64,000 nt of DNA from Myxococcota bacterium (GTDB lineage: Bacteria > Myxococcota_A > Bradymonadia > UBA7976 > UBA1532). Made by a program: the position numbers and the translations under genes. The stretch covers positions 2,872-66,871 of the forward strand of contig CAUJDF010000041.1 of assembly GCA_963169045.1 (NCBI GenBank), written 5' to 3'. Positions 9,449 to 28,637 of this stretch are shown in pieces; position 1 is the first letter of the stretch, and the number at the start of each line of letters is the position of its first letter. The notes below the pieces were generated by a model, which was not told the origin of the DNA, searched no databases, and saw only the letters and a list, made by a program, of their open reading frames with translations.

Positions 9449-10276
9449 CTACTTGGCGTTGCGCCGACGCACAATGAAGCGGTCGGTCGCCCGGTTATTG
9501 CGGGTCTTCTTGCCCTTCGTAGGGAAGCCCCATGGCGTCACCGGATGGCGTCCGCCCGAAGTGCGTCCCTCACCACCACCGTGCGGGTGGTCCACCGGGT
9601 TCATCGCGACGCCACGAACCTTGCCGCGGCGGCCAAGCCAGCGCGTGCGTCCGGCCTTGCCGATCGAGACGTTATTGTGCTCTTCGTTGCCAACCTGACC
9701 GATGGTCGCTCGGCAGTTCTGGTGGACGAGCCGGACCTCGCCCGAGGGAAGGCGCACCTGGCACCAATCCCCTTCCTTGGCCATCAATTGCGCGGCCGTA
9801 CCGGCTGCGCGGCACATTTTCGCACCGGCTCCGATCTTCAGTTCGACCGCATGAACGACCGTGCCAACCGGCATGTCACGCAGCGGTAAACTGTTGCCTA
9901 CCTTGATGTCGGCACCACGCGCCGAAACAACCTCGTCGCCGACCGTCAGCCCCTTGGGCGCGAGGATGTAGCGCTTCTCACCGTCGCTGTATGTCAACAG
10001 CGCGATGCGGGCGCTTCGGTTTGGATCGTACTGGATGCTCGATACCCTCGCGGGAATGCCGTACTTGTCGCGGCGGAAGTCGATGATGCGGAAGCGACGT
10101 TTGTGACCCCCCCCGCGGAAGCGGACCGTGATCCGTCCATAGCTGTTGCGCCCCGCGCGCTTGCGCGCCGGCTGCGTCAGGCTTTTCTCCGGACGATTGT
10201 GAGTAATTTCCGCGAAGTCGCTGACCGACATACCTCGCCGTCCCGGCGAAGTCGGCTTGTAAGTCTTGATACCCAT
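9449..10276 (-). CDS. rplB: 50S ribosomal protein L2
   Basis: 275 aa, conserved L2 C-terminal HPHGGGEG motif. Confidence 0.95.
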
Positions 10277-10282
10277 CTCCGC

Positions 10283-10603
10283 TTACTCCGCAGGCACCGC
10301 TTCGAGGTCCTCAAGGGCTCCGAAGAAGTCAACCTCAGCACCAGGCGCCAGCGTTACGACCGCCTTCTTCCAGTTCGAGCGCTTGCCGAAGTTACGACCG
10401 ACGCGCTTCGGCTTCCCGCGGTACAGCATCGTGTTGACCGCAGAGACTTCAGCGCCGAGAAGTTCCTCAACGGCGCTACGGATGTCGACCTTCGTGGCGT
10501 CGCGACGGACCACAAATACAACCTGGTTGAGATCGTCCTTCTGGCCAGTCGTCTTCTCGGTAACGAGCGGACGCCGGAGAATGCTATGGATGTCCTTCCT
10601 CAT
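10283..10603 (-). CDS. rplW: 50S ribosomal protein L23
   Basis: 106 aa, S10-operon position between L4 and L2. Confidence 0.9.
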
Positions 10604-11220
10604 TTCGCCAGTGCTCCCTCGATCCGTCGCACCATCGGCTCGGTGAGAACGACATGCCGGTACTTGAGCACGTCAAAGACGTTCAGGCCCTCGACGGGCA
10701 GGCACTTGACATGCGGAAGGTTGCGGACCGAGAGCAGCAGTTCGCGGCTTCCGCCATCGATGACCAGTGCATGTCCTTCGGCAAGGCGCGAAAACACCTG
10801 TGCCGCGCGCTTTGTCTTGACCTCGCCGAGAGAAAGTTCCTGCACAACGACAAGGCGGCCCTGGGATGCGCGAAGGCTGAGCGCCGAACGCAGTGCTCCC
10901 TTGCGCATCTTCTTATTCAGAGAGTATGCGAAGCTTCGAGGCCGAGGACCGTGCACGGCACCGCCGCCGACCCACTGCGCTGCGCGCCGCGAGCCCTGCC
11001 TGGCGCGGCCGGTACCCTTCTGGCGATACGGCTTCTTGCCGCCGCCCGCGACCTCGGAACGGGTTTTCGTCGAAGCAGTGCCGGCGCGGCGCCGTGCAAG
11101 CTGCCACTTCACCACCTCGTAGAAGAGGTGCCGATTCACCTCGGCCGCGAAGACTGCATCGGACACCTCAATGGAGCCGACCTCTTCGCGGTTCAGGTTA
11201 TAGACAGGGAGCGTCGCCAT
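10600..11220 (-). CDS. rplD: 50S ribosomal protein L4
   Basis: 206 aa with L4 signature [19 protein letters not shown]. Confidence 0.93.
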
Positions 11221-11232
11221 TCCCGTGGCTCC

Positions 11233-11544
11233 TCAGGACTTCAGCTCGACGTTGACGCCCGCCGAGAGATCGAGCTTCATGAGCGCGTCGAGCGTCTGGG
11301 GCGTGGGTTCGAGAATGTCAAGTAGGCGCTTGTGCGTTCGAATCTCAAATTGCTCGCGGCTCTTCTTGTCGACGTGTGGGCCGCGTAGCACCGTGTAGCG
11401 GCTAACGCTCGTCGGCAGCGGAATCGGACCCGCTACCTTAGCTCCGGTGCGCCGCGCGATATCGACGATCTCGGTCGCCGATTGGTCGAGCAACTTGTGA
11501 TCATATGCCTTTAGCCGGATTCGAATCTTCTGGCTGTTCGACAT
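11233..11544 (-). CDS. rpsJ: 30S ribosomal protein S10
   Basis: 103 aa [27 protein letters not shown]... Confidence 0.95.
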
Positions 11545-11554
11545 CGTGTCTTCC

Positions 11555-13645
11555 TCAGCCTCCGTACCGCTTCACGATGCTCTCGGCGAGCGCCTCGGGC
11601 ACCGGCGAGTGATGCGCGAAGTGCATCGTGTAGGTGCCGCGTCCTTGTGTCGCGGACCGCAGAACGGTGGCGTATCCGAACATGCTCGAAAGCGGCACCA
11701 CCGCTGAAACTACCTGCGCACCCGTGCGCAGCGCCATGTCCCGAATCTCACCGCGTCGACTATTCAGGTCGCCGATGACGTCCCCGACAAACTCTTCGGG
11801 AACAACCACCTCGACGCTCATCATCGGCTCGAGGAGCACGGGGCTCGCACTCCGGGCGGCTTCCTTGAATGCCATGCTTCCCGCCACACGGAATGCCATC
11901 TCCGACGAGTCCACTTCATGGTACGACCCGTCGTAGAGCTCAACCTCGACGTCCACCATCGGGAAGCCGGCGAGTACGCCGCCCGAACAGGCGCCTTCGG
12001 CGCCAGCCTGTACGGCGGAAAAGAATTCCTTCGGAACGACTGCATTCGCAATCGTCGACGTAAACTTGAAGCCGCTACCTCGCTGTCCAGGGCGGAGCCG
12101 CAACCAGCAATGACCGTACTGCCCACGCCCTCCGGTTTGGCGAACGAACTTCCCTTCGCCCGTTCCTTCGCGGCTGATCGTCTCGCGGTACGCAACTTGG
12201 GGCTTTCCCACGTTCGCCGCGACATTGAACTCGCGCAACAGTCGATCGACGATGATCTCGAGGTGCAACTCACCCATGCCGGCGATCAGCATCTGTCCGG
12301 TCTCTGGGTCTGTCAGTACCCGAAAGGACGGGTCTTCGAGCATGAGCTTGCCAAGCGATGAGGCTAGCCGGTCCTCGTCGGCCTTTGTCTTCGGCTCAAT
12401 TGCGACATTGATGACCGGCTCCGGGACCTGCATTCGCTCCAACGCTACCGGATGGCGCTCGTCGCACAGCGTGTCACCTGTGCGTACCGTCTTTAGTCCG
12501 ACGGCCGCGACAATATCACCGGCGAAGCAGTCTACAATGTCCTCGCGCTGATTCGCATGCATGCGAAGCAGGCGGCCGATCCGCTCGCGCTTGCCCGTCG
12601 TGACGTTGAGGACGGTCTGCCCTGCCGTCAGCGATCCCGAGTACACTCGAAAGTACGTCAAGTGACCGACGTACGAATCCGTCGATATCTTAAACGCTAG
12701 TGCCGCGAACGGCCCATCGTCTCTGGCGGGACGCCCAACCCTATCCTCGGTTGCTTCGCCGTTCTGCACCCGCATGCCCTCAATCGGAGGGACGTCGACG
12801 GGCGCGGGCAGAAAGTCGATCACCGCATCGAGAAGCGGCTGAATCCCCTTGTTCTTGAAGGCCGCTCCGCAGAGGACCGGCACTCCCTTCAGCGCGAGGG
12901 TCATCCGGCGCACTGCACGCCGAATCTGCTCGGGCGTGAGTTCGCGCTCCTCAAGCAGCCACTCGAGGATCTCGTCGTCGTGGGTGGACAAGTGCTCAAG
13001 CATGGCTTCGCGGTGCATCTCCGCCTCATCTGCGAGGTCGGCAGGTACTTCCGTTACCTCGAAGCGAGCCCCTTGCCCCTCCTCGTTCCAGACGACCGCC
13101 CTACGCTCGATGAGATCCACAACCCCTCGAAAGGACTCCTCGGCGCCGAGCGGCAACTGGATCACCAGCGGATTCGCGTATAGACGATCACGGAGCATCT
13201 CAACGCAGCGGTCAAAATTGACACCGACGCGGTCCATCTTATTGACAAACACAACGCGCGGTACTCTGTACCGGTCGGCCTGACGCCAGACCGTTTCGGT
13301 CTGCGGCTCCACTCCCGAGACGCCGTCGAGCACCGTAATCGCGCCGTCCAGGACGCGCAGGCTACGCTCTACCTCGATTGTGAAGTCGACGTGCCCCGGA
13401 GTGTCGATGATATTGATCACGTGCTCTCGCCAGTGGCACGTGGTGGCCGCCGACGTGATTGTGATCCCCCGCTCTTGCTCTTGTTGCATCCAGTCCATGA
13501 CGGCGGTGCCCTCATGGACCTCGCCCAGCTTGTAGCTGCGCCCGGTATAGAACAAGATGCGCTCGGTCGTCGTCGTCTTGCCGGCGTCAATGTGGGCCAT
13601 GATCCCGATGTTGCGGGTCGAGGCGATGGGAACCTGACGCGGCAT
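11555..13645 (-). CDS. fusA: elongation factor G
   Basis: 696 aa, G1 motif [23 protein letters not shown]. Confidence 0.96.
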
Positions 13646-13676: not shown

Positions 13677-14147
13677 TTACCAGCGATAGTGGGCGAAAGC
13701 CTTGTTCGCCTCGGCCATCTTGTGCGTGTCTTCGCGCTTCTTGATCGTGTTTCCACGACCGGCGGCAGCATCAATCAACTCGCCTGCGAGCTTCTCGGCC
13801 ATCGTCTTCTCGTGGCGCGAGCGCGAGTAGATGATGAGCCAACGAATCGCAAGCGCTGTGCGCCGCTCGCCCCGGATCTCGACCGGCACCTGGTATGTAG
13901 AGCCGCCGACGCGACGGCTCTTCACCTCGAGGCTCGGCTTCACGTTCTCAACGGCCTTCTTGAAGACGCGCAGCGGATCTTCCTTGGCGCGCTTCTCGAC
14001 GATGTCGAAGGCGCCATAGATGATCTGCTCGGCTACCGACTTCTTGCCGGCAAGCATCAGGCTGTTCGTAAATTTTGCTACCAGCCGATCACCGAATTTG
14101 GGATCAGGCAGGATGCGGCGCTTGGGGACTTCGCGGCGACGCGGCAT
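13677..14147 (-). CDS. rpsG: 30S ribosomal protein S7
   Basis: 156 aa [20 protein letters not shown]... Confidence 0.95.
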
Positions 14148-14164: not shown

Positions 14165-14539
14165 CTACTTCTTGGGCCGCTTGGCGCCGTACTTTGAACG
14201 GCCCTGCTTGCGATTGGCGACGCCAGTCGCGTCCAGCGTGCCGCGGATGATGTGGTACCGAACGCCAGGCAGGTCCTTTACACGACCACCGCGAATGAGC
14301 ACCACTGAGTGCTCCTGCAGGTTGTGCCCCTCACCCGGAATGTAGCTCGTCACTTCGATCCCGTTGGTCAAGCGAACACGGGCAACCTTGCGGAGCGCCG
14401 AATTTGGCTTCTTGGGCGTCGAAGTGTAGACGCGGACACAGACGCCGCGCTTCTGAGGGCATTCCTGCAGAGCGGGCGCGGCGTTCTTGCCCCGCTTGTG
14501 CTCGCGGCCCTTACGGACCAGTTGGCTGATCGTAGGCAT
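14165..14539 (-). CDS. rpsL: 30S ribosomal protein S12
   Basis: 124 aa [34 protein letters not shown]... Confidence 0.95.
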
Positions 14540-14791: not shown

Positions 14792-14819
14792 ATTATAATG
14801 GGCAGGTCCGGCCAGTCAA
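14792..14819 (-). promoter_or_regulatory. candidate sigma70 promoter of the rpsL-rpsG-fusA-S10 transcription unit (TTGACT-16 nt-TATAAT), followed by ~245-nt 5' leader
   Basis: On minus strand: TTGACTggccggacctgcccatTATAATg, a near-consensus -35/-10 immediately downstream of rpoC stop. Confidence 0.5.
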
Positions 14820-26685: not shown

Positions 26686-26761
26686 CGCTCACCCGCGCCG
26701 CAGGCCGCTCTGAAGCATTGCCCACGTACGCTCTTTCGCCGCCGCCTGCGGCTTCGATTGG

Positions 26762-26834
26762 CAGGCCCGGAGGGACTCGAACCCCCGACCGCCGGATTTG
26801 GAGTCCAGTGCTCTACCGACTGAGCTACGGGCCT
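26762..26834 (-). tRNA. tRNA-Trp (anticodon CCA)
   Basis: Cloverleaf by hand: AGGCCCG-TA-GCTC...CTCCAAA (CCA)...GGGGG-TTCGAGT-CCCTC-CGGGCCT-G. Confidence 0.88.
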
Positions 26835-26854
26835 ACGAAAGGGCGGCGACTCTC

Positions 26855-26893
26855 CAAAAAGTCCGAAACCCAGGCGGCTTCGGGCCGCCTGGG
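26855..26893 (-). terminator. intrinsic terminator downstream of tuf
   Basis: Perfect 10-bp GC stem cccaggcggc / gccgcctggg with 5-nt loop, followed on the transcribed strand by UUUCGGACUUUUU. Confidence 0.7.
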
Positions 26894-26931
26894 TTCTCGG
26901 TCGACGCCCCGAAGGGGCGCCCGCGCAACGC

Positions 26932-28116
<1,185 letters not shown>

Positions 28117-28202
28117 CTGCAGGAATCTCCCTGAGGAAGCGCTTGCGCCCTCGCTCGCGTCGCGAGCCGGGTCGAACGGTCATTAGCCTACGCGCGATAG
28201 CA

Positions 28203-28275
28203 AGCCGACGACCGGACTTGAACCGGTGACCCCGTCCTTACCAAGGACGTGCTCTACCTGCTGAGCTACGCCGGC
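28203..28275 (-). tRNA. tRNA-Thr (anticodon GGT)
   Basis: GCCGGCG-TA-GCTC...anticodon loop TTGGTAA...TTCAAGT T-loop. Confidence 0.85.
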
Positions 28276-28323
28276 ATGGGCCGGGCCCACCGAGGCAGAC
28301 CCGACCATGCTCAATTCAAGGGC

Positions 28324-28396
28324 AGCGGGAGACGGGGTTCGAACCCGCGACATTCAGCTTGGAAGGCTGACGCTCTGCCAGCTGAGCTACTCCCGC
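28324..28396 (-). tRNA. tRNA-Gly (anticodon TCC)
   Basis: GCGGGAG-TA-GCTC...loop CTTCCAA...GCGGG-TTCGAAC-CCCGT. Confidence 0.85.
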
Positions 28397-28435
28397 GCAG
28401 GGCCCGAGTAAGCAGGCCCGAACGCGATCAATCCA

Positions 28436-28518
<83 letters not shown>

Positions 28519-28565
28519 AAAGGACCCCATACCGTCTGAAAAGAACCAGCGGCGTCGGGGTGTCG

Positions 28566-28637
28566 TGCTGGCGATGGGAGTTGAACCCGCAACCTGCTGA
28601 TTACAAATCAGCTGCTCTACCATTGAGCTACGCCAGC
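28566..28637 (-). tRNA. tRNA-Thr (anticodon TGT)
   Basis: GCTGGCG-TA-GCTCAATGGTAGAGC; loop TTTGTAA. T-stem has one mismatch in my reading. Confidence 0.72.

Follow-up and report, generated by a model that had tools for sequence, protein, structure and literature searches.

The S10 gene cluster of this Myxococcota bacterium raises the question of where its gene for ribosomal protein uL3, rplC, has gone. In the window, by which we mean the whole stretch of 64,000 nucleotides that was analysed, the list of open reading frames and a direct reading of the minus strand both give the rpsJ stop codon, 12 nucleotides, and then the ATG of rplD. The features around this junction, in the direction of transcription, are the following.

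14165..14539, minus strand: rpsL, from its ORF translation, at the start of the str operon.
13677..14147, minus strand: rpsG, from its ORF translation.
11555..13645, minus strand: fusA (elongation factor G), with the Pfam EF-G domains.
11233..11544, minus strand: rpsJ (uS10, 103 amino acids), matched over its full length by Pfam PF00338 Ribosomal_S10 (E=3.5e-37).
11221..11232, minus strand: the S10/L4 intergenic spacer, 12 nt, read as 5'-GGAGCCACGGGA-3'.
10600..11220, minus strand: rplD (uL4, 206 amino acids), with Pfam PF00573 Ribosomal_L4 over residues 17-202 (E=1.5e-68).
10283..10603, minus strand: rplW (uL23), with Pfam PF00276 (E=1.6e-30).
9449..10276, minus strand: rplB (uL2), with the Pfam domains L2_N and L2_C.

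The rpsJ product ends in ELKS and is followed by a TGA stop (11233-11235), and the 12-nt spacer, which is the slot holding rplC in other phyla, carries GGAG as a Shine-Dalgarno sequence, 8 nt ahead of the start of rplD. The canonical arrangement with rplC between rpsJ and rplD is thus not found here, as a preliminary description of this DNA had pointed out. Downstream of the junction the operon has its usual form: rplW and the end of rplD share 4 nt, and open reading frames and Pfam matches together give the canonical order rplD-rplW-rplB-rpsS-rplV-rpsC-rplP-rpmC-rpsQ. The stretch L2-S19-L22-S3-L16-L29-S17-L14 was also recovered from a Logan contig (L001), identical to the window. On the upstream side just 10 nt lie between fusA and the start codon of rpsJ, with no tuf, promoter space or leader in between, and the str operon passes directly into rpsJ-rplD (successive gaps of 17, 31, 10 and 12 nt between rpsL, rpsG, fusA, rpsJ and rplD). 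The window as a whole contains a dense run of transcription and translation genes on the minus strand, in the order rpoB, rpoC, rpsL, rpsG, fusA, rpsJ, rplD, rplW, rplB, rpsS, rplV, rpsC, rplP and onward to rpsK (45-437), which marks its left end. Contig L091, from the same organism, extends beyond this end; after secY it carries adk-rpmJ-rpsM-rpsK-rpsD-rpoA-rplQ, and neither map nor infA was called between adk and rpmJ on it.

Base composition differs along the window. G+C amounts to 62% in the half that holds the ribosomal and rpoBC genes (1-28000) and to 72% in 28700-64000. At third codon positions the ribosomal-protein genes, adk and secY, as far as rpoC, have values of 0.69-0.83; these increase to 0.81-0.93 from rplL to tuf, and the rest of the window lies at 0.75-0.99, mostly above 0.86. 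The lower G+C of the ribosomal half is most likely a matter of codon usage in highly expressed genes and not a sign of foreign origin.

We then looked for uL3 in the remainder of the window. No uL3 was detected in the 64 kb by tblastn with approximate sequences of the L3 proteins of Escherichia coli and Bacillus subtilis (best E=0.2). A profile HMM made from 185 L3 sequences, which scored 317-326 bits on two positive-control loci, found none in the six-frame translation either (best E=0.17, 7.6 bits). Eight L3 proteins from within the Myxococcota likewise gave no uL3 by tblastn; their best match (E=0.03) was a 37-residue chance match inside rpoB. The earlier statement that no L3-like open reading frame occurs anywhere in the 64 kb is therefore upheld with distant seeds, with in-phylum seeds and with the HMM.

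Could an L3 domain be concealed in one of the neighbouring proteins? The suggestion that the N-terminus of L4 might be a disguised L3 domain fails, because the Ribosomal_L4 domain fills residues 17-202 of 206 and leaves no space for an L3 domain in the rplD product. S10 and L4 are each of ordinary length and occupied by their own Pfam domain, and thus neither of them conceals L3. The absence of L3 from 64 kb would also suit an organism that had truly lost uL3, or in which an extended L4 or S10 had taken over its function. We consider this extremely improbable, since both candidate proteins have ordinary lengths (103 and 206 amino acids) filled by their own domains, since a normal uL3 of 216-248 amino acids is encoded elsewhere in all relatives examined, and since uL3 is universal and essential.

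The preliminary description had left two possibilities, a relocated gene or a deletion introduced by the assembly. The second would mean that a collapse or mis-join had removed about 650 nt encoding L3 between rpsJ and rplD, and nothing speaks for it beyond the universality of L3 and the fact that the window is a single assembly. Against this, the exact L4 protein of the window was found on contigs of nine public assemblies belonging to at least four accession series; EF-G, S10, L4 and L23 stood in the same order in all nine, and the 312 nt centred on the S10/L4 junction were identical to the window in each of these independent Logan assemblies (9/9). The spacer moreover has a well-placed ribosome-binding site, and the same adjacency of S10 and L4 is present in 16 other Myxococcota genomes and in the finished genome of Myxococcus xanthus (see below). 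We thus give an assembly artefact only a minute probability; of the two possibilities it is relocation that stands, at the level of the lineage, with uL3 at other loci in Myxococcota.

To see how this gene order is distributed, species-representative genomes, one per bacterial species, were scanned with the L4 protein of the window, and S10, L3, L4, L23, EF-G and EF-Tu were located in each of the 80 loci obtained. Two loci that end at a contig edge just upstream of L4 were left out of the count. In 16 of the 80 loci, all of them of Myxococcota type, L4 came next after S10 and L3 was missing from the flanking 10 kb on both sides; of these, 15 carry the labels Myxococcales, Nannocystaceae, Polyangia, Kofleriaceae, Anaeromyxobacter or Bradymonadia, and one is labelled only "Deltaproteobacteria bacterium". 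In-phylum L3 seeds had no match in these 16 loci. L3 lay directly upstream of L4 (S10-L3-L4) in all 62 assessable loci of other phyla, which are labelled as Desulfobacterota-type, Geobacterales, Bacillota and others. The S10-L4 spacer measures 10-35 nt in 13 of the 16 Myxococcota loci; the remaining three have 86-175 nt, and the 12-nt spacer of the window is of the short non-coding kind typical of these operons.

The window itself, which comes from an uncultured bacterium, belongs to the same group, in agreement with the guess of Myxococcota in the preliminary description. Its best L4 matches are metagenome-assembled genomes labelled Myxococcales (76% identity) and Nannocystaceae (73%), and in a tree of S10, L4, L23 and L2 (663 columns) it forms one clade with all the loci that lack rplC, with all L3-containing loci outside; taxon labels here are those of the submitters, and this tree, like the others below, is a simple neighbour-joining tree without support values. 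One of the loci without rplC, that of a Myxococcales metagenome-assembled genome (L013), has a G+C content of 46%, compared with 58-70% in the other Myxococcota loci, which means that the gene-order trait spans very different base compositions. The comparison with S10 operons of related Myxococcota that the preliminary description had proposed hence gave the same answer at every related locus examined: S10-L4 adjacency without rplC is how these genes are normally arranged throughout the phylum Myxococcota, as sampled by these 16 loci and by nine L3 lineages, a sample that would allow for an exception inside the phylum.

The scan also bears on a second gene. tuf is missing between fusA and rpsJ in the window as well (11545-11554, 10 nt), and the sole tuf of the window (26932-28116) is found upstream of secE-nusG. 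Across the loci compared for this trait (L010-L013, L036, L042, L073-L075, L082, L087-L089), tuf lies between fusA and rpsJ in the Myxococcota loci L042, L074, L075, L087 and L088; it is not there in the closest relatives of the window or in L036, L073, L082 and L089. In the interval 26759-28637 (minus strand), the tuf gene of the window is directly preceded by tRNA genes for Thr(tgt), Tyr(gta), Gly(tcc) and Thr(ggt), the same tRNA order as in the thrU-tyrU-glyT-thrT-tufB operon of E. coli. A tRNA-Trp gene lies between tuf and the next downstream open reading frame, which is presumably secE.

Where is rplC in these bacteria? The finished genome of M. xanthus DK1622 provides a first answer. In the RefSeq gene list given in the supplement of a transcriptome paper (PMC6791715), S10 is MXAN_3299 (3854626-3854934), L4 is MXAN_3300 (3854988-3855611), L23 is MXAN_3301 and S7 is MXAN_3296, and a "50S ribosomal protein L3" is listed as MXAN_3370 (3913660-3914304). 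M. xanthus is thus like the window in that S10 is directly followed by L4, the other S10-spc order being kept and L3 standing at a separate locus. From rpsJ this locus is about 58 kb away, and its neighbours are the hypothetical gene MXAN_3368 on one side and nfsA (MXAN_3371) on the other. MXAN_3370 and nfsA differ in their transcription pattern (PMC2875238). The two genomes differ in detail: M. xanthus has an S10-L4 spacer of 53 nt, against 12 nt in the window, and its distance of about 3.76 kb from S7 to S10 offers room for both fusA and tuf, where the window has fusA alone, ending 10 nt short of rpsJ. The rpoBC cluster, contiguous with the S10 cluster in the window, is presumably far from it in M. 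xanthus.

The same surroundings were found in other Myxococcus species, on contigs where rplC is preceded by genes of 157 and 256 amino acids, with a MoxR-type AAA gene further upstream, and followed by genes of 273, 438, 512 and 1201 amino acids, an arrangement matching that of nfsA-D in M. xanthus. A family from uncultured Myxococcales (P0159) has genes of 283, 377, 513 and 1157 amino acids after rplC, the last with TPR repeats, and its L3 lies nearer to that of cultured Myxococcia (Corallococcus, Myxococcus, Archangium, Melittangium), at 55-57% identity. In the loci of these two groups (L117, L118-L120, L127-L128), rplC is directly upstream of nfsA-D-like genes, which belong to a sporulation or gliding-type envelope complex, and is not beside ftsJ.

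A different neighbourhood emerged from an exhaustive search of 50%-identity cluster representatives, which yielded an L3 protein (P0183) whose gene has a GCS2-family gene and ftsJ as its neighbours instead of those for S10 and L4. With the 226-amino-acid form of this protein (P0286) as query, at least 120 relatives were obtained, and the names among the matches listed are Myxococcota, Myxococcales or Polyangiales, with one Pseudomonadota. Over the uL3 family the named matches listed are nearly all Myxococcota, Myxococcales, Polyangiales, Myxococcaceae, Corallococcus, Myxococcus, Archangium and Melittangium, that Pseudomonadota entry being the single exception. For ten representative L3 proteins, exact-sequence clusters carried no names of organisms. 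Other approaches gave no Myxococcota sequence: an L3 from outside the phylum (L085) as protein query returned only Desulfobacterota-type L3s among the at least 120 matches listed and hence no Myxococcota seed, and tblastn of L3 against a plasmid collection met only mislabelled chromosomes, with nothing myxobacterial.

Seven Polyangia-type contexts could be compared (loci L095, L098, L099-L108, L109-L111, L112, L113 and L114-L116). In all seven lineages the next gene after rplC, in the same orientation, is ftsJ/rlmE (PF01728), at a distance of -1 to 95 nt in six of them and of 217 nt in one, and neither S10 nor L4 is near rplC in any of the seven. This spacing suggests that rplC and ftsJ/rlmE may be co-transcribed. 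Beyond ftsJ there usually follow a convergent TPR gene, glnD and an amidase gene. On the other side, tatD precedes rplC and a HEAT-repeat gene precedes tatD in five of the seven lineages; metG and/or holB lie further upstream in four of these five, and a tetR-family gene in three. The usual neighbourhood is thus holB-metG-HEAT-tatD-rplC-ftsJ, convergent with glnD, which sets the Polyangia-type relatives of the window apart from M. xanthus with its rplC before nfsA-H.

Such separate loci could have arisen by movement of the native gene or by capture of a foreign one. In the latter case horizontal transfer would have brought a foreign rplC into an ancestor's genome at a new locus, after which the native copy in the S10 operon disappeared. 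The nearest outgroups do differ between the two trees, being "Deltaproteobacteria" (L014-L016) and unnamed representatives for the L3 clade and L085 and Trichlorobacter for S10+L4+L23+L2, as a foreign gene might produce; but these trees are too weak for a real conflict. The L3 proteins of Myxococcota form one clade (neighbour-joining, 207 columns) among deltaproteobacterial-type L3s, and no affinity to a distant phylum was seen. Their nearest named outgroups, the L3s of L014-L016, share 47-55% identity with them, the same range as that between the L4 proteins of the Myxococcota and deltaproteobacterial-type groups (49-55%), which favours movement of the native gene over foreign capture as far as such simple trees go. 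Displacement by a foreign gene therefore appears improbable to us. Since all loci without rplC fall into one clade, the simplest and best reading of the data is that rplC was relocated once, long ago, at the base of the phylum or earlier.

Taken together, these results make it very probable that the window has the standard Myxococcota order, in which the ancestor's rplC moved out of rpsJ-rplC-rplD, the junction closed, and uL3 is supplied in trans from elsewhere. The course of events would be as follows. In the ancestor of the Myxococcota, rplC would have left the otherwise universal rpsJ-rplC-rplD junction, which would have closed to an S10 stop, a short spacer with GGAG (12 nt in the window) and the L4 start. 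In the present arrangement rpsL-rpsG-fusA-rpsJ-rplD-rplW-rplB and the genes beyond would form one tightly packed transcription unit, probably read from a promoter-like site before rpsL, with L4 translated from its own ribosome-binding site. uL3 would come from a separate locus with its own promoter, and its stoichiometry relative to the other 50S proteins would be set independently. The source seen in Polyangia-type relatives is the (holB-metG-HEAT-)tatD-rplC-ftsJ/rlmE locus convergent with glnD, and in Myxococcus it is the rplC gene immediately before the nfsA-H sporulation operon.

We searched for the rplC of this organism itself in several ways and did not find it. Following the sample accessions, we found that the contigs with the candidate L3 proteins P0355, P0303 and P0421 come from other runs than those with the L4 and S11 of the window. 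Extension to the left with public contigs reached only rplQ plus 370 nt, and comparison of tetranucleotide frequencies and G+C between the L3 loci and the window did not discriminate among the candidates. A tatD-rplC-rlmE locus is expected in this organism because its closest relatives group with the Polyangia-type lineages in the four-protein tree.

How the closed junction is expressed was considered next. A scan for consensus sequences placed one candidate promoter ahead of the str genes.

14792..14819, minus strand: sigma-70-like promoter upstream of rpsL (TTGACT, 16-nt spacer, TATAAT; 11/12 matches to the consensus), from the consensus scan only.

Judged by its sequence, this site is likely the promoter of a fused str-S10 transcription unit. 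Between fusA, rpsJ and rplD the same scan of the minus strand met nothing resembling a promoter or a terminator, and Rfam detected no ribosomal leader in the window, its only hits there being tRNAs. In E. coli the S10 operon (rpsJ-rplC-rplD-rplW-rplB-rpsS-rplV-rpsC-rplP-rpmC-rpsQ) is autoregulated by L4 at the S10 leader. The window has the same order from rplD on, and rpsJ still precedes it, but it has neither rplC nor space for a leader or promoter, so that neither a promoter of its own nor an L4-responsive leader of the E. coli type is found upstream of rpsJ. With fusA ending 10 nt before rpsJ there is no leader space, and L4 control of the E. coli type at an S10 leader therefore cannot operate. 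PMC3616713 describes such leaders as largely confined to Gammaproteobacteria.

Breaks of the S10 cluster at this position have a precedent of another kind. Cyanobacteria and plastids, as well as Chlamydiae, have a lineage-wide break between rpsJ and rplC, which leaves rpsJ attached to the str operon and makes rplC the first gene of the remaining cluster. In the window, by contrast, rplC alone has been excised, and rpsJ and rplD are rejoined.

A literature search on rplC or the S10 operon in myxobacteria or Myxococcus found no paper describing the rearrangement, which has nevertheless been visible for years in the finished and annotated genome of M. xanthus. As the arrangement is standard for the phylum, it is also much less surprising than the preliminary description had supposed, and only two points are mildly new, the fact that the trait follows the phylum without exception in this sample, and the conserved pairing of rplC with rlmE. 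A more ambitious reading may be offered tentatively, and we think it rather less likely to hold than to fail. The excision of rplC would be a single, phylum-defining synapomorphy, undescribed in the searchable literature, that placed uL3 under separate control; the rplC-rlmE/ftsJ pair, present in most of the phylum, would suggest that the supply of uL3 is coupled to late maturation of the 50S subunit, and in Myxococcaceae rplC would stand beside the nfs sporulation operon. RlmE/FtsJ methylates U2552, a nucleotide of the A loop of 23S rRNA.

Altogether, these data make a modest point of comparative genomics, with no new mechanism. For annotation and quality control, the absence of rplC from a myxobacterial S10 cluster is to be expected and is no flag for mis-assembly or for an incomplete cluster, and the conserved tatD-rplC-rlmE neighbourhood shows annotators where to seek the gene. 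The adjacency of S10 and L4 is a simple gene-order marker, which in this sample separates the 16 Myxococcota-type loci from the 62 assessable loci of other phyla. For biology, the finding shows that throughout a phylum an essential 50S protein which joins early in assembly can be supplied in its stoichiometric amount without being tied to the S10 operon.
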